Origin: Bythopirellula goksoeyrii
Lineage (GTDB): Bacteria > Planctomycetota > Planctomycetia > Pirellulales > Lacipirellulaceae
Assembly: GCF_008065115.1 (NCBI RefSeq)
Contig: NZ_CP042913.1
Span: 4,783,257-4,847,256, forward strand
Reading direction: 5' to 3'
DNA: 64,000 bases
Shown here: one piece after another, positions 31,082-36,210 of the stretch
Layout of the letters: each line of letters begins with the position of its first letter
Numbering within the stretch: position 1 is the first letter of the stretch
Position numbers and translations under genes: made by a program
The notes under the pieces: generated by a model
Told to the model about the DNA's origin: nothing
Seen by the model: only the letters and a program-made list of their open reading frames with translations
The model's database searches: none

Positions 31082-31163
31082 GGAGGGTAAGCGAATGGCT
31101 AGCGGCCTGATTGGAATTCAGGTGCCGGGTAACCGGTTGTGGGTTCGAGTCCCATGCCCTCCG
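31082..31163 (+). tRNA. tRNA-Ser (anticodon GGA), type II, intact
   Basis: Acceptor GGAGGGT/GCCCTCC, anticodon stem cctga/tcagg with loop 'ttGGAat', variable-arm hairpin ccgg-gtaa-ccgg, T arm gtggg-ttcgagt-cccat, discriminator G. CCA is not encoded. Confidence 0.8.
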
Positions 31164-31175
31164 CTCTGATTTTCC
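31108..31175. repeat. Left copy of a 68-bp direct repeat (3' 56 nt of tRNA-Ser plus 12 nt downstream); att-like
   Basis: Identical to 36211-36278 ('tgattggaattcaggtgccgggtaaccggttgtgggttcgagtcccatgccctccgctctgattttcc'). Confidence 0.85.
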
Positions 31176-31447: not shown

Positions 31448-32554
31448 TTACAGCAGGTTCACAACCCGATCAGCTAGGCCCTTTTCACCCAAGACCACAT
31501 TGAGCTTACCGCTCGACGCGATTTTCTCCAGAACTTCCAGTTCTCGGAGTCGCATGAGGGTCGGGTTGTCGGCCAGTAGCTTGGCGGTGTTTGCCTGGCT
31601 ACGCATTGCCGCCGTTTCCTCACGTCGAGAAATCAGGTTGGCCTCGGCCGCCTTCTTGGCCTCGGTGACCTTGTTCATCAGGTCTTTCATGTCGCCAGGT
31701 AGGATGACATCACGGACACCTACCGAAACAACTTCCAGACCCAGATCACCTGCACGCTGGCTAACCTGCTCTTCGAACTCGCTAGTAACGGCATCCTTGT
31801 CGGTCAGGAACGAATCCAAATCGCGGGTACCAACGACAGCACGCAAAGCCAACTGTGCCTCACGGTACAGCGACTGCTTTTCGCCGTCAGAGATGGTGAC
31901 AGCCTTACGGGCATCCGTGATGCGGTACGTGACCAGAGCGTTCATACGCAAGGTGACCTTGTCGGCAGTCATGATTTCCTGACCCGCCACATCCAAAGCC
32001 TGCTCACGCATGTCGACCTCGACAACCTTCGAATCAGCCACGTTCTTCCAGAACGCGTACTGACCTGGTGCCAACGTCTCCACGTAGTCGCCGTCCTGGA
32101 ACGACACACCGACATGGTTTCGTTCAACCGAGCAGATGTCGAGCATCTGAGCAGCGTAAGGAGACCGGACAATCGTCTTCAAGTCACCGTGCTGCAAACG
32201 GACCTCGCGGGCATCGATCACTTCGATACGAACGTCCTTGAAGCCCGTCCAGTAAGCGCATAGCCCTGGCGGCAACACGTGGCTGAAACGACCCTCAATC
32301 CAAACTAGTGCACGCTCATAGTCCTTCAGGTCAATGACCTTAGCGACGTCCGTAAGCGCACCACTCTTGACGATCACATCCAGCTTGTCGTGCGTGATCA
32401 ATGGTTCTCGCTGTGAGACCACGTCGACGCGGACCTTCCACAGGGGATCGAACAACCAATGTCGACCCTTGGTCAGCAATCGCTGGAATTCACCGTCGCG
32501 GAAGTACAAACCGACTTCATAGCTGCGAATTCTCACTCTCTTAAATAGCATCAT
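31448..32554 (-). CDS. SPFH/band-7 domain protein (stomatin/HflC-like)
   Basis: SPFH core 'VDMREQALDVAGQEIMTADKVTLRMNALVTYRITDARKA' and a C-terminal coiled-coil ('EAKKAAEANLISRREETAAMRSQANTAKLLAD'). Strong SD 'aaaggagg' 9 nt upstream of the ATG at 32554; the ORF-track start at 32608 is an upstream extension. Confidence 0.8.
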   Translation of the reverse strand: MMLFKRVRIRSYEVGLYFRDGEFQRLLTKGRHWLFDPLWKVRVDVVSQREPLITHDKLDVIVKSGALTDVAKVIDLKDYERALVWIEGRFSHVLPPGLCAYWTGFKDVRIEVIDAREVRLQHGDLKTIVRSPYAAQMLDICSVERNHVGVSFQDGDYVETLAPGQYAFWKNVADSKVVEVDMREQALDVAGQEIMTADKVTLRMNALVTYRITDARKAVTISDGEKQSLYREAQLALRAVVGTRDLDSFLTDKDAVTSEFEEQVSQRAGDLGLEVVSVGVRDVILPGDMKDLMNKVTEAKKAAEANLISRREETAAMRSQANTAKLLADNPTLMRLRELEVLEKIASSGKLNVVLGEKGLADRVVNLL

Positions 32555-33020
32555 GAGGTTGTACCTCCTTTCTGGCCGAAACATGTTTGCGGTCGGCTCG
32601 CCACACATTCAAAACAACTGCGTACAGGGAGTTGAGGACTAATGATTTAAGTATTTGGTTCGCAATAGATCAAAATAAAAACGCCCTCGGGCAGCGGAAC
32701 GAATCGCTTGGTCACACATCCGTACGCGGAGTGCAATTTGAGCGGTCATGTTCGCCGCATCTTTCAGTTGCTTTCACCAGTGAGGCCGTCACGAGCATGG
32801 CTCGTTAGGCGACACGCAGCTTCCGCAACCTTCAGACACAGCGTGCGTGAAAGCGGTATCCACGCACTGCATAGCGTCGGTATGTGTTGCCGCCACGCCA
32901 TCGTCTCACCGAAGTGAACACGACAACGCGCGACTGACGAAACAACCGTTCGCTGCCCTTGGGCTTCATGGTGACGCTTTCGCGCCGGTTCCTTTCGCAA
33001 AGGGCAGGTTCTTAGCCTGC

Positions 33021-33093
33021 GGTGCGGTACGGGAGTCGAACCCGTGACAGCCAGGTTAACAGCCTGGTGCTCTACCAACTGAGCTAACCTTGT
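33021..33093 (-). tRNA. tRNA-Asn (GTT)-like; acceptor stem 5' strand does not pair (possible pseudo/chimeric tRNA)
   Basis: D arm GCTC-AGTTGGTA-GAGC, anticodon stem-loop CCAGG-CTGTTAA-CCTGG and T arm ACGGG-TTCGACT-CCCGT are canonical. However 5' ACAAGGT does not pair with 3' ACCGCAC. Confidence 0.45.
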
Positions 33094-33204
33094 GGCGGTC
33101 TCGTGCGCCTTCGTAACAACCCAAACACGGAACACACAACACCAACCGGTTGAGTGGGGTGCAGTGCGCCGCTGGCCCAGCGCCATCAAAACCTCGCATT
33201 CAAA

Positions 33205-33280
33205 GAGACGCCGGTGGGAGTCGAACCCACAAAATCACTAGGCTCTCGACCTAGTCGCTTTGCCAGTTTGCGTACCCAGT
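33205..33280 (-). pseudogene. Degenerate tRNA-like gene (anticodon loop TCGAGAG, GAG; U33 replaced by C; acceptor stem 4 of 7 paired)
   Basis: T arm GTGGG-TTCGACT-CCCAC and anticodon hairpin ctagg/cctag are present. D stem is 3 bp. Acceptor has central mismatches. Confidence 0.3.
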
Positions 33281-33499
33281 CAAATTAAGTGGCGGGTTCG
33301 GGTGTCGCACCCGACGATCCAGGCTTATGAGGCCCGGCTGAGCACTGGCTCACCCGCGCTAGTACTTCTAGTAGCCAAGGGGCCCTTTAATTGGTGACAT
33401 GGCGAACTCCCACGCCACAAGTGGCATGACATTCTGAGTGTCGCGCCGACCAACCTAACGGTCGGTGCCCGCCGTTCCACCACTTGGCCATATTCATCA

Positions 33500-33570
33500 G
33501 TAGCCCGTACGGGAATCGAACCCGTGCCGCGAGATTGAGGGTCTCGCATCCTGCCGCTAGACCAACGGGC
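33500..33570 (-). tRNA. tRNA-Glu (anticodon CTC), with unusual C33
   Basis: Acceptor GGCCCGT/ACGGGCT, Glu-type D loop 'GTCTAGCGGCAGGAT', anticodon stem CGAGA/TCTCG with loop CCCTCAA, T arm ACGGG-TTCGATT-CCCGT. Confidence 0.6.
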
Positions 33571-33583
33571 CATCATGTATCAA

Positions 33584-33670
33584 ATGGGTCGTGAAGGAAT
33601 TGAACCTCTCGTCGCCCACCCCGCTTGTTTTCGGACAGCTGATTTACAGTCAGCCGCGAGGAGCACAACC
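33584..33670 (-). tRNA. tRNA-Tyr (GTA)-like, type II, with a shortened/atypical D arm
   Basis: Acceptor GGGTTGT/ACGACCC pairs. Anticodon stem GCTGA/TCAGC with loop CTGTAAA. Long variable region. Only ~10 nt lie between the acceptor and the anticodon stem. Confidence 0.45.
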
Positions 33671-33677
33671 CAAGTAA

Positions 33678-33752
33678 GTAGCACGGGAGGGATTCGAACC
33701 CACATCCACCAAGGTTTGAGCTTGGTCGCTCTGCCAAATTGGCGTACCGCGC
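33678..33752 (-). tRNA. Non-canonical type-I tRNA with anticodon CAA (Leu codon UUG) but a short 5-nt variable region
   Basis: Acceptor GGCGCGG/CCGTGCT (2 G-U pairs), D stem CGC/GCG, anticodon stem CCAAG/CTTGG with loop CTCAAAC, T arm GTGGG-TTCGAAT-CCCTC, discriminator A. Confidence 0.5.
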
Positions 33753-33760
33753 CTTAGCAA

Positions 33761-33835
33761 GCGTCCCCGATGGGATTTGAACCCACGGCCTCCACCTTGA
33801 CAGGGTGGCGAGCACTCCAAGCTGCTCCACGAGGA
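33761..33835 (-). tRNA. tRNA-Asp (anticodon GTC)
   Basis: Acceptor GTCCTCG/CGGGGAC, D arm GAGC-loop-GCTC, anticodon stem CCACC/GGTGG with loop CTGTCAA, T arm GTGGG-TTCAAAT-CCCAT. Confidence 0.8.
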
Positions 33836-33851
33836 CATTGTCTTGTTTGCA

Positions 33852-33937
33852 GTGGCTCAGGTGGGACTCAAACCCACAGCATCCGAGTGCTTCGTCACTT
33901 CAATTGCGACAAGTAGTCGAAGCACTAGGTTCTAAGC
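33852..33937 (-). pseudogene. Degenerate tRNA-like gene (86 nt; acceptor and T arm retained, internal 9-bp hairpin replaces the D/anticodon region)
   Basis: Acceptor GGCTTAG/CTGAGCC pairs. T loop is TTTGAGT (C56 replaced by T). Internal hairpin AGTGCTTCG...CGAAGCACT. Confidence 0.3.
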
Positions 33938-33971
33938 CGAGGTGGTCTGCCGATTGCCTACCGAGCCATTA

Positions 33972-34043
33972 GTACCCAGAGCAGGATTCGAACCTGCAAA
34001 CACCTGATCCTAAGTCAGGCCGCTCGCCGTTGGCGTATCTGGG
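33972..34043 (-). tRNA. Non-canonical type-I tRNA with anticodon TAG (Leu codon CUA) and a short variable region
   Basis: Acceptor GCCCAGA/TCTGGGT, D stem CGC/GCG with a 9-nt loop, anticodon stem CCTGA/TCAGG with loop CTTAGGA, 5-nt variable region, T arm GCAGG-TTCGAAT-CCTGC. Confidence 0.5.
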
Positions 34044-34055
34044 CATCAAAGCAAA

Positions 34056-34128
34056 GTAGTCCTGGGTGGACTCGAACCACCGATCGTCTTCTTGTAAGTA
34101 GGCTGCCTTCGCCGCTAGGCCACAGGAC
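34056..34128 (-). tRNA. tRNA-Val (TAC)-like; the 5' strand of the anticodon stem does not pair (possible pseudogene)
   Basis: Acceptor AGTCCTG/CAGGACT perfect, D arm GCCT-AGCGGCGA-AGGC, T arm GGTGG-TTCGAGT-CCACC, loop CTTACAA. GCCTA versus GAAGA is unpaired. Confidence 0.4.
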
Positions 34129-34134
34129 TACAAG

Positions 34135-34219
34135 GCGGAAGTCGAGGGACTCGAACCCCCAAGTCGCGCGAGCGACCAACTGTTTTCAAGACAGTCTCCT
34201 CATCCAGCCGGATGACTTC
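34135..34219 (-). tRNA. tRNA-Ser (anticodon TGA), type II
   Basis: Acceptor GGAAGTC/GACTTCC, D stem TCC/GGA, anticodon stem ACTGT/ACAGT with loop CTTGAAA, variable-arm hairpin GTCGC/GCGAC, T arm GGGGG-TTCGAGT-CCCTC. Confidence 0.75.
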
Positions 34220-34224
34220 CGTAA

Positions 34225-34300
34225 GCTGCGGGAGTTGGACTCGAACCAACATCAGAGCGTTCAGAGCGCCCCGTCCTACCGTTGAGCGACCCCGAAGTAG
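34225..34300 (-). pseudogene. Degenerate tRNA-like gene (T arm and 3' acceptor only; anticodon region replaced by the direct repeat 'tcagagcg' x2)
   Basis: T arm GTTGG-TTCGAGT-CCAAC is perfect, but there is no pairing 5' acceptor or anticodon hairpin. Confidence 0.3.
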
Positions 34301-34313
34301 TTTTGTTCTGCTA

Positions 34314-34388
34314 GTTCCGGGGGTAGGAATCGAACCTACGGACTCCTGCTTCAAAGGCAGGCAACACTACCAGCAGCGTCGACCCCGG
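34314..34388 (-). tRNA. tRNA-Gln (anticodon TTG)
   Basis: U1-A72 acceptor TCCGGGG/CCCCGGA, anticodon stem GCAGG/CCTGC with loop CTTTGAA, T arm GTAGG-TTCGATT-CCTAC. Confidence 0.75.
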
Positions 34389-34407
34389 AATGTTTTTTTG
34401 CATCAAA

Positions 34408-34479
34408 GAGTGCCCTGTGGGAATCGAACCCACCTCGCCAGCTTGGAAGGCTGGAACCTTTGCCGCTCGGTCAAGGGCA
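34408..34479 (-). tRNA. tRNA-Gly (anticodon TCC)
   Basis: Acceptor GTGCCCT/AGGGCAC, anticodon stem CCAGC/GCTGG with loop CTTCCAA, T arm GTGGG-TTCGATT-CCCAC. Confidence 0.8.
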
Positions 34480-34485
34480 CATGCA

Positions 34486-34569
34486 GCGGAAGGAGAGGGA
34501 GTCGAACCCTCAAGGCTCATCGCTCGACTGTTTTCGAAACAGCTGCCATCGCCTATTGGCTTGCTCTTC
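34486..34569 (-). tRNA. tRNA-Ser (anticodon CGA), type II
   Basis: Acceptor GGAAGAG/TCCTTCC (5 of 7), anticodon stem GCTGT/ACAGT with loop TTCGAAA, long variable region, T arm GAGGG-TTCGACT-CCCTC. Confidence 0.6.
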
Positions 34570-34576
34570 CGTTTGA

Positions 34577-34640
34577 GCTGCGGAGGCAGGAATCGAACCT
34601 GCGTCGCGACGATTAACAGTCGCCTTCCCGTACCAGCACA
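34577..34640 (-). pseudogene. Degenerate tRNA-like gene (8-nt anticodon loop TGTTAATC; 5' acceptor not pairing)
   Basis: T arm GCAGG-TTCGATT-CCTGC and hairpin GCGAC/GTCGC are present. Confidence 0.3.
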
Positions 34641-34659
34641 GGACCCACCGCATCAATTA

Positions 34660-34733
34660 GTCAGGACGACTGGATTTGAACCAGCGATCTCGTGCTCCCG
34701 AGGCACGCGGAATGCCAAACTTTCCCACGTCCT
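34660..34733 (-). tRNA. tRNA-Pro (anticodon CGG)
   Basis: C1-G72 acceptor CAGGACG/CGTCCTG, D arm GGAA-loop-TTCC, anticodon stem GCACG/CGTGC with loop CTCGGGA, T arm GCTGG-TTCAAAT-CCAGT. Confidence 0.85.
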
Positions 34734-34738
34734 GAAAA

Positions 34739-34809
34739 ATGCGCCCAGCCGGAATCGAACCGACACATCCTGCATGGCAAGCAGGAAGGCTGCCACTACA
34801 TCATGGACG
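34739..34809 (-). tRNA. tRNA-Gly (anticodon GCC)
   Basis: Acceptor GCGTCCA/TGGGCGC (1 G-U), anticodon stem CCTGC/GCAGG with loop TTGCCAT, T arm GTCGG-TTCGATT-CCGGC. D stem is weak. Confidence 0.6.
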
Positions 34810-35010
34810 CAAGCTATTGCTAACCAAATTGTCAAAGATCGGGGACGCAAAGCGTCCTTAGAGCACCGGGTCGGACTCGAAGCAGTGTTTCACTACCGCC
34901 TTCGTCCTTTTTCCTCGCTATCGCTCGGCGGACTCAGTTGCTCTATCCGAGAGCGGAGTCTTCGCCGCTAGACGACCAGTGCTTTGTTACTTTAGTAGGA
35001 CCGGACCTAC

Positions 35011-35095
35011 CTGCGGTCGGTGCCCGACTCGAACCCTCACCCCGCCGGTTAAGAGCCGCCCCGTTTCTTGGCTACAGGGGCTGCCGCTAACACCT
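35011..35095 (-). pseudogene. Degenerate tRNA-like gene (Lys CTT-like loop CTCTTAA; T arm not pairing)
   Basis: 'TTCGAGT' T-loop motif and anticodon-like hairpin GGCGG-CTCTTAA-CCGGC, but no canonical T stem or acceptor. Confidence 0.25.
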
Positions 35096-35115
35096 CAGTC
35101 CCAAATTGTTGTTCA

Positions 35116-35188
35116 ATTGGCGTGGAAGGAATTGAACCTTCGGCCCGCGACTTATAAGGTCGCCGCTCTCACCACTGAGCTACACGCC
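35116..35188 (-). tRNA. tRNA-Ile (anticodon TAT; would read AUA directly)
   Basis: Acceptor TGGCGTG/CACGCCA perfect, D arm GCTC-AGTGGTGA-GAGC, anticodon stem GCGAC/GTCGC with loop CTTATAA, T arm GAAGG-TTCAATT-CCTTC. Confidence 0.7.
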
Positions 35189-35192
35189 AGTA

Positions 35193-35264
35193 GTGGGGCC
35201 GGAGGGATTCGAACCCACACCCACCTGGTTAAAAGCCAGGGATGCTGCCGTTACACCACAACCC
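35193..35264 (-). tRNA. tRNA-Lys (anticodon TTT)
   Basis: Anticodon stem CCTGG/CCAGG with loop CTTTTAA, T arm GTGGG-TTCGAAT-CCCTC. Acceptor is 6 of 7 paired with an A1-C72 mismatch. Confidence 0.6.
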
Positions 35265-35344
35265 TATTGTTGGTTGGGCGTATTTGTTTACATCGCAGGA
35301 CGATTGACATCATGTTGCTCCTTGCAGTTCGTAAATTGTTGGAA

Positions 35345-35416
35345 GTGGTAGCCCTGGGAATCGAACTCAGCGCCACCCGGTTATCAGCCGGGTCTGGGCA
35401 ACCAGCCCTCGACTAC
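35345..35416 (-). tRNA. tRNA-Ile (anticodon GAT); atypical D arm
   Basis: Acceptor GGTAGTC/GGCTACC, anticodon stem CCCGG/CCGGG with loop CTGATAA, T arm CTGAG-TTCGATT-CCCAG (1 mismatch). Confidence 0.55.
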
Positions 35417-35423
35417 CATCTAA

Positions 35424-35496
35424 GTCGGGCGATTCGGAGTCGAACCGAAACCCTCCTGCTCCCAAAGCAGGCGTGCTTCCATCTGCACCTCCGCCC
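35424..35496 (-). tRNA. tRNA-Pro (anticodon TGG)
   Basis: C1-G72 acceptor CGGGCGG/TCGCCCG, D arm GTGC-loop-GCAC, anticodon stem CCTGC/GCAGG with loop TTTGGGA, T arm TTCGG-TTCGACT-CCGAA. Confidence 0.8.
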
Positions 35497-35507
35497 GATA
35501 TTTATCA

Positions 35508-35579
35508 ATACCCCGTGAGGGAATCGAACCCTCATCAGCAGATTGAAAGCCTGCTATCCTTGCCAATAGACCAACGGGG
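35508..35579 (-). tRNA. tRNA-Glu (anticodon TTC)
   Basis: Acceptor GCCCCGT/ACGGGGT, Glu-type D loop (GTCTATTGGCAAGGAT), anticodon stem GCAGG/TCTGC with loop CTTTCAA, T arm GAGGG-TTCGATT-CCCTC. Confidence 0.8.
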
Positions 35580-35617
35580 CATGTTGTGATTCTTTTATAG
35601 CGCACCGGTACCGCAAA

Positions 35618-35689
35618 GTGGGCTGGGAGGCGCTCGAATCCTCGTATGCGGTGCTTCAAACCGCCGCTATACCGTCTCAGCTACCAGCC
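35618..35689 (-). tRNA. tRNA-Phe (anticodon GAA)
   Basis: Acceptor GGGCTGG/CCAGCCC perfect, D arm GCTG-loop-TAGC, anticodon stem GCGGT/ACCGC with loop TTGAAGC, T arm GAGGA-TTCGAGC-GCCTC. Confidence 0.8.
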
Positions 35690-36210
35690 CAATTTCGTTT
35701 CGGATCGGCCTCTTCGATCGGCAGCAGCCAAAGAAAAAGGCCCGGCGTCGCTATGACACCGGGCCTTGTGGCTCATCAAAGAGTAGGCCAAGTGTCATAA
35801 TCTCCCATTACCGCTGGCGAGCGCATATATGGGCTGTTCATTCACGGGTTGGGCAAATGATTTATCAGCCGGCAAATATGCCGCCAGAGATCGGGCTATG
35901 AAACTTGGTCTTAAATGATTCATTTTGGTTACCTCTATCTAAACTATACCCCAAAAATGGAGCAATGTTTCGTTGGTCTCCCTATAAGAGTGTCAAATCG
36001 GTAATTGGTTCGTGCAAAATTCTGAAAATATTGGGAGAAAAAGATTGTGAATCTTATCACGATCTCTATTGTCTGGAGTGAGTAGTTTACGAGATTCGAG
36101 TTGATGCGAAGTAACGCCATGAAAATTCTTGTCTGTACGGGAATTATCACATTTACGATTCACCAACAAGCAAATCACCTTTCCGTATTCGGTGAATCAG
36201 CGCTGCTGGG

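Follow-up and report, generated by a model that had tools for sequence, protein, structure and literature searches.

To what extent are the odd tRNA genes of an acquired array debris, designs or errors of folding? The question is raised by a dense tRNA cluster in a 64,000-nt stretch of Bythopirellula goksoeyrii DNA (the window, to which all positions refer). A sequence-only reading had taken it for a horizontally mobile array of intact, suppressor-like and decayed tRNAs or, alternatively, for a product of hand-folding errors. The general idea of a mobile array mixing intact and decayed genes was right, and the odd tRNAs are real and non-canonical; their interpretation as decay or suppressor-like forms where type-I Leu and C33 are concerned, and several delimitations, do not stand. 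Sequence comparison divides the odd tRNAs into two kinds, conserved family designs and lesions of the B. goksoeyrii copy.

The insert and its tRNA units

The array (minus strand, 33021-35690) is housed in a 5.1-kb insert at tRNA-Ser(GGA), bordered on both sides by a perfect 68-nt direct repeat that equals the 3′ part of this tRNA gene (Table 1). The slipin gene is the sole protein gene of the insert, within which no integrase gene was found. Most of 40 rho-anchored relatives retain the tRNA-Ser, and rho–tRNA-Ser synteny is seen in relatives; none of the 40 scanned has an array at this locus, and the insert is missing from related genomes. The array was acquired horizontally and mixes intact with decayed tRNA genes.

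We count 27 tRNA-like units, rather than the ~24 estimated earlier, when Val-TAC, the Met-like unit and the Leu-CAG and Thr-CGT remnants were missed. ARAGORN detects 19/27, Rfam 18/27 and either tool 21/27. Could every unit nonetheless be an ordinary cloverleaf, the oddities being artefacts of hand-folding? Part of the list of units said to retain only T arm and acceptor does reflect hand-folding or delimitation errors. Thus, 34225-34300 is a full Gln-CTG (34225-34296; both tools, 37 bits), whose sole lesion is a G2→T change giving a T·C mismatch at 2-71, and 34577-34640 belongs to an Asn-GTT cloverleaf (34577-34652) found by ARAGORN and in 6 other arrays; 33852-33937 is merely part of a complete, hairpin-bearing Leu-TAG, and 35011-35095 part of a Lys-CTT pseudogene with a broken T stem. 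Two units called canonical also fare differently: Ile-GAT, lacking U8, with a 3-bp D stem and an A·C in the T stem, falls below Rfam detection, and the Tyr-like unit is found by neither tool. However, six units escape both ARAGORN and the Rfam tRNA threshold, and the tools reproduce C33, type-I Leu and broken acceptors; hand-folding error as an account of all units is hardly credible and is refuted by these results.

Table 1. Features of the insert and its borders (window coordinates)
Feature	Position	Strand	Evidence or remark
tRNA-Ser(GGA), intact	31082..31164	+	ARAGORN
68-nt repeat copy 1 (att-like), tRNA-Ser(GGA) 3′ part	31108-31175		repeat search
Slipin / SPFH (Band-7) gene, 368 aa	31448..32554	-	Pfam PF01145
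Conserved structured non-coding region, between tRNA-like unit and slipin gene	32683..32964	-	
Anticodon-arm-like hairpin GCAGG / CUAAGAA / CCUGC	33004..33020	-	directly 3′ of b7a-tRNA
b7a-tRNA (band-7-associated tRNA-like RNA), triplet GTT here	33021..33093	-	Rfam 55.3 bits, local match
Leu-GAG::Cys-GCA deletion chimera	33205..33281	-	blastn junction
Mini Met(CAT)-like tRNA	33290..33357	-	cloverleaf fold, 19 orthologues with compensatory changes
Type-II Leu-CAG pseudogene	33392..33490	-	20-nt hairpin insertion
Glu-CTC with C33, family-typical	33500..33571	-	ARAGORN, Rfam
Tyr(GTA)-like variant	33585..33671	-	missed by ARAGORN and Rfam
Type-I Leu-CAA, 76 nt	33678..33753	-	ARAGORN; Rfam 46.7 bits
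Asp-GTC, canonical	33761..33836	-	ARAGORN and Rfam
Complete Leu-TAG, 41-nt hairpin inserted in variable region	33853..33967	-	Rfam 29.3 bits
Type-I Leu-TAG, 73 nt	33972..34044	-	ARAGORN; Rfam 56.3 bits
Val-TAC, anticodon stem broken by two substitutions	34056..34129	-	
Ser-TGA, Gln-CTG, Gln-TTG, Gly-TCC, Ser-CGA	34134..34570	-	ARAGORN, Rfam
Asn-GTT cloverleaf, G8 and 5-bp D stem, family-typical	34577..34652	-	ARAGORN
Pro-CGG and Gly-GCC, canonical	34660..34811	-	ARAGORN and Rfam
Thr-CGT pseudogene	34862..34982	-	mutated anticodon arm; ~50-nt hairpin insertion before T loop
Lys-CTT pseudogene	34996..35102	-	acceptor, D arm, anticodon loop kept; T stem broken
Ile-TAT, Lys-TTT, Ile-GAT, Pro-TGG, Glu-TTC, Phe-GAA	35117..35690	-	ARAGORN, Rfam
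Strong intrinsic terminator, just upstream of first tRNA	35737..35767	-	
Conserved leader ORF, 42 aa, ends ..RL-TGA	35795..35923	-	
68-nt repeat copy 2, displaced tRNA-Ser(GGA) 3′ fragment	36211..36278	+	repeat search

Family designs and local lesions

Homologous arrays, sought by anchoring on the slipin protein gene, separate the two kinds. Some 20 colinear arrays, with 15-41 tRNAs each, occur in further Pirellulales, in metagenomes and on a single phage contig; arrays of this size and the same order stand at 19 of the 30 slipin loci for which 4 kb or more of upstream sequence was available, and that of the window is colinear with the Adhaeretor mobilis array. The two short-variable-arm tRNAs with Leu anticodons spotted earlier are both found by ARAGORN and belong to a type-I Leu set with anticodons TAA/TAG/CAA/GAG in the array family. 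Across arrays (n = 55 sequences), 97.1% of cells are paired, 17/20 pairs show double changes (215 double-change cells) and the covariation score is 0.621 vs 0.223 in shuffles; A73 is invariant and the Leu-type D arm is kept, and in two members (L161 and L165) the V arm has been deleted from Leu-CAG-type bodies. Likewise, the previously reported C33 of Glu-CTC, whose anticodon loop CCCTCAA places C at position 33, recurs in 113/715 array tRNAs (16%), above all in Leu-GAG (16/18), Glu-CTC (10/14) and Thr-CGT (9/12). The mini Met-like tRNA, with its 4-bp/4-nt D hairpin and T loop UGCGACA, has a design typical of the family and a weak Tymo_tRNA-like match in Rfam. The Asn-GTT design is kept with covariation in 6 further arrays, G8 or an absent U8 in Asn and Ile is conserved, and the Tyr-like variant has a covarying long-range helix in place of the D arm, conserved with compensatory changes.

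Are all these oddities, type-I Leu and C33 included, the neutral degeneration of an acquired array that is silent? The sequence-only reading essentially took this view. It is in keeping with the state of the B. goksoeyrii copy (6-7 clear pseudogenes, a 1.1-kb deletion, several stem mismatches), with fragmentation elsewhere, as in the broken-up Aeoliella array, with inserts in 24/567 normally type-I tRNAs, and with the poor expression reported for L-arrays (PMC8421152). For the family-wide features, however, pure decay is already contradicted by the pairing, double changes and invariant A73 of type-I Leu, by C33 keeping to certain isoacceptors from array to array instead of being scattered, and by the covarying Met-like, Asn and Tyr-like designs; as a general explanation it is improbable. 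Type-I Leu and C33 are conserved over the ~20 homologous arrays, not accidents of decay or suppressor-like forms (no suppressor anticodon occurs in the window), and together with the mini Met-like tRNA they are family-wide and structurally constrained.

Other oddities are lesions of the B. goksoeyrii copy. A blastn junction bears out the suspicion that two genes contributed halves to 33205-33280: Leu-GAG runs from the 5′ end to the T arm and Cys-GCA from there to the 3′ end, scoring 27.6 bits, under the Rfam threshold, with 3 central acceptor mismatches. This chimera was left by a T-arm-to-T-arm deletion of ~1.1 kb that took away ~12 tRNAs. Hairpin insertions hit four genes, Lys-CTT, Thr-CGT, Leu-CAG and Leu-TAG (variable region); the Leu-CAG pseudogene has also lost the 3′ strands of T stem and acceptor, that of Thr-CGT has no Rfam match, and Lys-CTT bears a 16-nt insertion common to Adhaeretor and an 18-nt one unique to the window, which destroys the T stem. 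The 4-base anticodon "taca" that ARAGORN gives for Val-TAC is an artefact of its broken anticodon stem.

The module from leader ORF to slipin gene

Intact loci have the order leader ORF and terminator, ~40 tRNA genes, b7a-tRNA, a structured RNA of ~280-370 nt and slipin gene; being one co-oriented unit of conserved order, this reads as a co-transcribed unit. The terminator is 99.4% paired with covariation across 16 loci. The leader ORF encodes a conserved peptide and ends in a TGA within the motif TTATGACAC (35792-35800), which is complementary to the terminator 5′ arm; the stop codon falls inside the putative antiterminator strand. A short ORF, alternative antiterminator and terminator hairpins and a stop codon so placed recall trp/his-type attenuation. 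In contrast to the latter, the genes proposed to be controlled are RNA genes, the ORF lacks a run of any single regulatory codon, and the antiterminator is without covariation backing: its sequence is conserved, yet the pairing shows one compensatory event and scores no better than shuffles.

At the other end, 33021-33093 had been described as having perfect arms on a chimeric acceptor. All three arms (D, anticodon and T) are indeed perfect and the acceptor poor (3 bp), but the unit is conserved: 62 homologues were found, and in a set of 53 homologues the outer acceptor pairs form in only 25-51% of sequences. It is not a chimera and matches the b7a-tRNA of RNA-repair loci as described in bioRxiv 10.1101/312249. 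The structured region matches no Rfam family; RNAalifold on 16 loci gives 70 pairs, 31 with compensatory changes, and its core motif occurs once per locus in 48 loci. The slipin is a 100% match to the B. goksoeyrii "slipin family protein", and homologues sit downstream of arrays in other genomes too. The link to this gene and to RNA-repair loci was absent from the sequence-only reading.

No RtcB, RtcA or Ro60 gene lies near the array in the window, and the RNA-repair link therefore rests on relatives and literature. In Adhaeretor, Ro60, a pair of YrlA Y RNAs, RtcB and RtcA stand ahead of the module, and RlaP and Tpt1 come after it; in Citrobacter a full-length slipin homologue is divergent from rtcR, and in Burkholderia a tRNA-like RNA lies upstream of a slipin homologue. 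The Band-7/SPFH and b7a-tRNA module (Burroughs & Aravind 2016, via the accessible text of bioRxiv 10.1101/312249) likewise has a tRNA-like RNA immediately upstream of the Band-7 gene, and the neighbours shared with it in relatives are RtcB, RtcA, Ro60/YrlA, RlaP and RtcR. Unlike the window copy, that module has repair enzymes nearby, and the same text makes no mention of a tRNA array or large structured RNA.

A spare-tRNA supply?

Considering all this jointly, we favor, at roughly 70%, the reading that the window holds a degraded copy of a mobile L-array whose intact module is a stress-induced supply of spare tRNAs linked to RNA repair. L-arrays (the Anabaena trn operon, the Acidithiobacillus ICE array), which surveys had already noted in Planctomycetes, likewise consist of dozens of tRNA genes in one orientation, separated by short spacers (PMC8421152, PMC4758250); patchy distribution, a set supernumerary to that of the host, pseudogenes and association with HNH endonucleases are also shared, a likeness of general features. 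The Anabaena L-array is induced by translation inhibitors, with 23/26 tRNAs aminoacylated (PMC8421152), and belongs to the TrcR translational-stress regulon with rtcB, an HNH gene and the slipin gene alr0740 (PMC10272220), so that a slipin link is common to both. The array here differs in being physically fused upstream of b7a-tRNA, structured RNA and slipin gene, in being headed by a leader-ORF/terminator element in place of a TrcR operator, and in its four type-I Leu isoacceptors and its C33 share of 16%. Phage tRNA clusters (mycobacteriophage cluster C1, T5 and others) similarly combine large tRNA sets, mobile DNA and non-canonical loops (PMC10264068, PMC11464382), and one homologous module, with an HNH gene inside the array, is on a phage contig that also carries a terminase gene; most copies here, in contrast, are chromosomal, and position 33 itself is changed, which those papers do not discuss.

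Do the tRNAs decode at all? They might instead act on tRNA-cleaving toxins as decoys or sponges, or be substrates or signals of Band-7/RtcB repair, given the physical coupling to b7a-tRNA and slipin, a b7a-tRNA that clearly needs neither fixed anticodon nor full acceptor, and RtcR operons for which damaged tRNAs are the inducing signal (PMC7790460). Yet the anticodon set of the arrays is nearly complete, free of redundancy and represents all 20 amino acids; the 7-bp acceptors are intact and the discriminators conserved. This points to a decoding requirement rather than decoy function, and most of the Anabaena tRNAs are charged; a non-translational role is quite unlikely. Deliberate recoding, in which type-I Leu-anticodon or V-arm-inserted tRNAs take another amino acid for regulated mistranslation, is a far-fetched option. 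The V arm is a major class marker, here removed or, as long V-region inserts in some normally type-I tRNAs of other arrays, added; however, type-I Leu keeps its D arm and A73, some are clearly Leu-CAG bodies that lack the V arm, no alternative identity set (e.g., G3:U70) is seen, and the inserts look disruptive, breaking T stems.

That bacterial tRNA-Leu is always type II, as had been asserted, is an overstatement: Streptomyces coelicolor has, alongside type-II Leu, a type-I tRNA-Leu(CAA) with short variable loop, charged by its own LeuRS (PMC6614811). That precedent is a single chromosomal gene, leucylated, as opposed to four isoacceptors on a mobile array with putative charging; by analogy, LeuRS most likely still charges the latter. 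Since the Streptomyces tRNA is not a substrate of E. coli LeuRS (PMC6614811), charging here hinges on the host enzyme.

As a stress-induced spare-tRNA module, our best reading, the intact module would supply a spare tRNA set upon damage to translation or the tRNA pool. Ribosome stalling on the leader ORF may free the antiterminator and switch the array on, its start and stop and the TTGTGACAC motif being proposed to affect terminator read-through. C33 loops may make the spare tRNAs poor substrates of anticodon-loop nucleases, an evasion proposed for anticodon-loop changes in phage tRNAs (PMC10264068), although C33 could also reflect relaxed constraint or a peculiarity of modification or decoding. 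Slipin and the tRNA-like RNA would act with RtcB and other RNA-repair enzymes. For B. goksoeyrii itself, the visible decay of its copy argues that the array is of little use to the present host.

The insertion site and the array family

First, the decayed tRNA array (33021-35690, minus strand) does not belong to the conserved chromosomal order around it. A perfect 68-nt repeat of the 3′ part of tRNA-Ser(GGA) stands at both borders, which marks the array as part of a 5.1-kb insert of the kind classically left by integration at a tRNA gene. Ordinary chromosomal genes flank it: rho on one side, and araA together with genes for an aldolase and a sugar kinase on the other. Synteny with the closest relatives ends at tRNA-Ser. 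Anchoring on rho and taking a single genome per species gave 80 Pirellulales loci, of which 40 were scanned for tRNAs; the array is absent from the rho–tRNA-Ser site in all 40, most of which retain rho–tRNA-Ser itself. This absence, the flanking repeats and the varied contexts of the module elsewhere together make up the patchy distribution expected of horizontal transfer. Slipin, identical to a B. goksoeyrii protein, is the sole protein gene of the insert, no integrase or other mobility gene lies in the insert or its flanks, and the window holds just two copies of the 68-nt repeat, with no third att copy. Deposited phages yielded no close DNA relatives (generic tRNA matches only), and slipin tblastn against phages gave only weak SPFH matches.

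Second, the array is one member of a family, which a search with the slipin protein recovered as L081 (a locus on an IMG/VR contig), L084 (Adhaeretor mobilis), L085 (an ENA genome) and 80 metagenome loci. Upstream DNA of 4 kb or more is available at 30 loci: 19 of them have 15-41 tRNAs there, 10 have only 1-4 and one has none. Intact homologous arrays hold 30-41 tRNAs, as in Adhaeretor (30) and L081 (36, directly upstream of slipin and ordered as in the window). The shared order runs Phe, Glu, Pro, Pro, Ile, Lys, Ile-TAT, Lys-CTT, Thr, Gly, Pro, Asn, Ser, then Gly, Gln, Gln, Ser, Val, Leu-TAA, Leu-TAG, Asp, Leu-CAA, Tyr, Glu-CTC, then Leu-CAG, Met, Leu-GAG, Val, Thr, Ala, Ala, Ser, Arg, His, Trp, and ends with Thr, three to four Arg, Cys, a terminal unit and slipin; the window and Adhaeretor arrays are colinear at 78-98% identity. 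In L081 and L166 (7613-8209), an HNH endonuclease gene separates tRNA-His from tRNA-Trp. The window has no HNH homing endonuclease, an L-array associate, the His-Trp segment that holds it elsewhere being deleted here. Besides its HNH gene, L081 (8244-8840, 16654-18327) carries a phage terminase large subunit gene 5.5 kb past slipin, and the module therefore also travels on phage DNA. In Aeoliella mucimassa (L167 2345-9545), genes for a methyltransferase and a 1526-aa CotH/LTD protein split the array, with the band-7-associated tRNA-like RNA (b7a-tRNA) and slipin still adjacent; one ARAGORN prediction in L085 (8241-8330) is 90 nt long and has a TCA anticodon, as in SeC or opal-suppressor tRNAs.

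Conserved designs and lesions among the units

Third, the array mixes ordinary tRNAs, unusual ones maintained across the family and units broken in this copy. ARAGORN predicts 19 minus-strand tRNA genes (33500-35690) and Rfam RF00005 gives 18 matches at or above threshold, for a union of 21; sequence reading, sub-threshold Rfam matches and folding bring the total to 27 tRNA-like units in 2.67 kb, six of which escape both ARAGORN and the Rfam threshold. An L-array is defined by a minimum of 20 tRNA genes and of 2 such genes per kb (Tran et al., PMC4758250); with 21 tool-found tRNAs and 27 units, the window array falls within that definition, ARAGORN alone giving 19. All units share one strand, with spacers mostly of 3-40 nt and an isotype pattern that does not repeat, so arranged that the array is potentially one operon and is not periodic. 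Allowing introns and a lowered threshold in ARAGORN added only implausible giant-intron calls, no Rfam family covers the units at 34812-35116, and YrlA matches within the array were rejected as sub-threshold tRNA cross-matches. The top-scoring unit, Ile-TAT, is 100% identical to its Adhaeretor copy, with neighbouring units diverging by 2-8%. A UAU anticodon would decode AUA without lysidine modification.

Features of the window insert and its tRNA-like units
Feature	Position	Strand	Source or score	Observation
tRNA-Ser(GGA)	31082-31164	+	ARAGORN	
68-nt direct repeat	31108-31175 and 36211-36278	+		bounds the insert
Slipin (Band-7/SPFH) gene	31448-32554	-		
Structured non-coding region	32683-32964	-		candidate new RNA
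Hairpin	33004-33020			
b7a-tRNA	33021-33093	-	RF00005, 55.3 bits, local match only	three acceptor pairs
b7a-tRNA hypervariable loop	33050-33056	-		
Leu-GAG::Cys chimera	33205-33281	-	27.6 bits	three central acceptor mismatches
Met(CAT)-like unit	33290-33357	-		68 nt
Leu-CAG, type II	33392-33490	-		hairpin-forming insertion
Glu-CTC	33500-33571	-		C33, anticodon loop CCCTCAA
Tyr-like unit	33585-33671	-		
Leu-CAA, type I	33678-33753	-		V loop 4-5 nt, 3-bp D stem, A73
Second Leu-TAG	33853-33967	-		115 nt, hairpin insertion in variable region, cloverleaf fold retained
Leu-TAG, type I	33972-34044	-		V loop 4-5 nt, 3-bp D stem, A73
Val-TAC	34056-34129	-		two substitutions, same strand of anticodon stem
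Gln-CTG	34225-34296	-		complete
Asn-GTT	34577-34652	-		complete though unusual
Thr-CGT	34862-34982	-		hairpin-forming insertion
Lys-CTT remnant	34996-35102	-		hairpin-forming insertion
Ile-TAT	35117-35189	-	74.2 bits	
Leader ORF and terminator	35737-35923	-		ORF of 42 aa

The sequence-only reading had held that many units are non-canonical, and ARAGORN and Rfam bear it out: not all units fold as standard tRNAs. Twelve window units combine U33, a 7-bp acceptor and standard D and T arms. Glu-CTC departs from this at position 33, as that reading had noticed, the b7a-tRNA and the chimera depart in the acceptor, Ile-GAT and Asn-GTT lack U8, and the Met-like and Tyr-like units also fall outside it. 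The Leu-CAA and Leu-TAG units are indeed the type-I (short variable arm) cloverleaves it described, without the long arm of type-II bacterial tRNA-Leu. Other parts of it did not survive. Two units taken for a T arm and acceptor only are the complete Gln-CTG and Asn-GTT, a supposed remnant at 33852-33937 is a portion of the second Leu-TAG, the stretch 35011-35095 is decayed as proposed but wrongly delimited, being a portion of the Lys-CTT remnant, and the suppressor-like tRNAs find no counterpart, as the window contains no suppressor anticodon (CTA, TTA or TCA).

The type-I tRNAs with Leu anticodons recur in 20 of 22 arrays, in which Leu-CAG is usually type II (82-86 nt). When 55 distinct type-I Leu sequences are aligned, 97.1% of cells fit the cloverleaf, 17 of 20 pairs show double changes, and the covariation score is 0.621 vs 0.223 for shuffles and at most 0.147 for slid controls. 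Discriminator A73 is invariant in all 55, and the D arm is of the Leu type (a 3-bp stem, A14 A15 .. G18 G19 .. A21), like that of the array's own type-II Leu-CAG; in two arrays the bodies are of Leu-CAG type, merely without the V arm. A leucylated type-I tRNA-Leu has a bacterial precedent in Streptomyces coelicolor (PMC6614811). Position 33 is a C in 113 of the 715 array tRNAs, in a pattern that follows the isoacceptor: Leu-GAG (16/18), Glu-CTC (10/14), Thr-CGT (9/12) and Ala-GGC (7/9). Compensatory changes also accompany the Met(CAT)-like and Tyr-like units, an Asn-GTT with G8 and a 5-bp D stem, and an Ile-GAT without U8. The T loop (UGCGACA) and mini D hairpin of the Met-like unit give a weak match to a tymovirus tRNA-like model, and in the Tyr-like unit a helix that covaries and spans the anticodon arm stands in for the D arm. 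The family offers natural experiments in tRNA design, with bacterial tRNAs that carry Leu anticodons without the long arm under structural selection, and a frequent C33 at a nearly universal U.

Other oddities are lesions of the window copy. The sequence-only reading had taken the unit at 33205-33281 for halves of two genes behind a defective acceptor, and blastn agrees: window 33282-33213 aligns to relatives' Leu-GAG gene and 33230-31409 to their stretch from the Cys-GCA T arm onwards, and the unit is therefore a Leu-GAG::Cys chimera, the scar of a deletion of ~1.1 kb between T arms that took about 12 tRNAs with it. Hairpin-forming insertions interrupt Lys-CTT, Thr-CGT and the type-II Leu-CAG, disrupting the T arm or the D/anticodon junction. 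We set aside a reading of the hairpin insertions as BHB introns, since their sites and sequences are heterogeneous and several wreck stems. Elsewhere, a hairpin-like insert in the T arm or V region lengthens 24 of 567 normally type-I tRNAs to at least 84 nt, and the insert sequences differ from one another (e.g., L081 5963-6052, L122 3003-3097). The four-base anticodon that ARAGORN assigns to Val-TAC arises because of its anticodon-stem substitutions, and Gln-CTG and Ile-GAT have one window-unique stem mismatch apiece. For annotation the lesson is plain: six units were overlooked, one "tRNA" is a deletion chimera and one is non-decoding.

RNA elements at both ends of the array and links to RNA repair

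At the upstream end, three features precede the first tRNA in 16 loci. A short conserved leader ORF ends in ..RL-TGA, its stop embedded in the motif TTATGACAC/TTGTGACAC, and a strong 13-bp terminator between the ORF and the tRNAs holds in its 5′ arm GTGTCACAA, the complement of TTGTGACAC. A candidate antiterminator, its 8-bp core complementary in 13-16 of the 16 loci, rests on sequence conservation and not on independent covariation. To us this arrangement resembles an attenuator for the entire array that acts through the ribosome. Upstream of the array, a sigma-54 promoter (TGGCGGCATATTTGCC) was rejected, being confined to the window and Adhaeretor rather than family-wide, and a scan for a sigma-70 consensus promoter gave no match.

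At the downstream end, the b7a-tRNA lies ~470 nt upstream of slipin on the same strand, an arrangement repeated in 62 loci, array-less ones among them, and in Burkholderia, where a tRNA-like RNA lies upstream of a slipin homologue. It resembles a real tRNA; all 53 sequences compared pair fully (100%) in the D, anticodon and T stems, and no more than 25-51% of them form the outer four acceptor pairs. Loop positions 33-36 are hypervariable across the 62 loci, with at least 20 different triplets, and the remaining molecule is 80-95% conserved. The unit fits a prediction by Burroughs & Aravind (2016), the "band 7-associated tRNA", as bioRxiv 10.1101/312249 describes it. Its poor acceptor had been noticed from the sequence, but the join of two genes then proposed gives way to this assignment. 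The Burkholderia RNA has an anticodon loop of only 4 nt. Between the b7a-tRNA and the slipin start lies a structured region (~280 nt, up to ~370 nt elsewhere), for which RNAalifold predicts 70 base pairs, with compensatory changes at 31, and which contains the invariant motif ATGCAGTGCGTGGATACCGC once per locus in 48 loci. This slipin leader RNA has no Rfam family.

The window contains no RNA-repair genes, RtcB or others; the linkage is present in Adhaeretor and Citrobacter. In Adhaeretor (CP036263; L084 1-4767), genes for Ro60/vWA, two YrlA Y RNAs (74.7 and 71 bits), RtcB and RtcA directly precede the module, and two RlaP, Tpt1, Macro, NUDIX and PARG genes follow it (L084 11193-15186). In Citrobacter freundii (L168 5966-9919), a full-length slipin homologue (36% identity) and a nucleotidyltransferase gene lie in divergent orientation to rtcR; no rtcBA is annotated in the 17-kb stretch and no tRNA-like match occurs in the 450-nt intergenic region. 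The TrcR regulon of Anabaena unites a trn L-array, rtcB, an HNH gene and a slipin gene (PMC10272220), a co-regulation that matches the physical array-slipin linkage in this family.

A proposed function for the module

Finally, what would an intact module do? L-array induction by translation inhibitors is reported (PMC8421152), and loop variants have been proposed to evade anticodon nucleases (PMC10264068). Together with the attenuation reading of the leader, these precedents suggest that the intact module probably provides a reserve of nuclease-resistant tRNAs that is coupled to RNA repair, a role apparently fading in the B. goksoeyrii copy. Going further, the L-array, the b7a-tRNA, the ~300-nt structured RNA and slipin may form, in Planctomycetes and their phages, a single "tRNA replacement and repair" operon that stress switches on, a tentative reading to which we give a probability of about 0.3. 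Ribosome stalling in the leader would turn on the full nuclease-resistant set, with its C33 and type-I Leu tRNAs, and a slipin-RNA particle would act with RtcB-type enzymes on the damaged tRNA pool.

In dozens of genomes, this family physically joins long tRNA arrays to the Band-7/b7a-tRNA branch of RNA-repair systems. With cultured strains at hand for both a decayed copy (B. goksoeyrii Pr1d) and an intact one (Adhaeretor mobilis), these ideas are directly testable, and if the operon reading is true, L-arrays and the Band-7/b7a-tRNA system would share one testable function.
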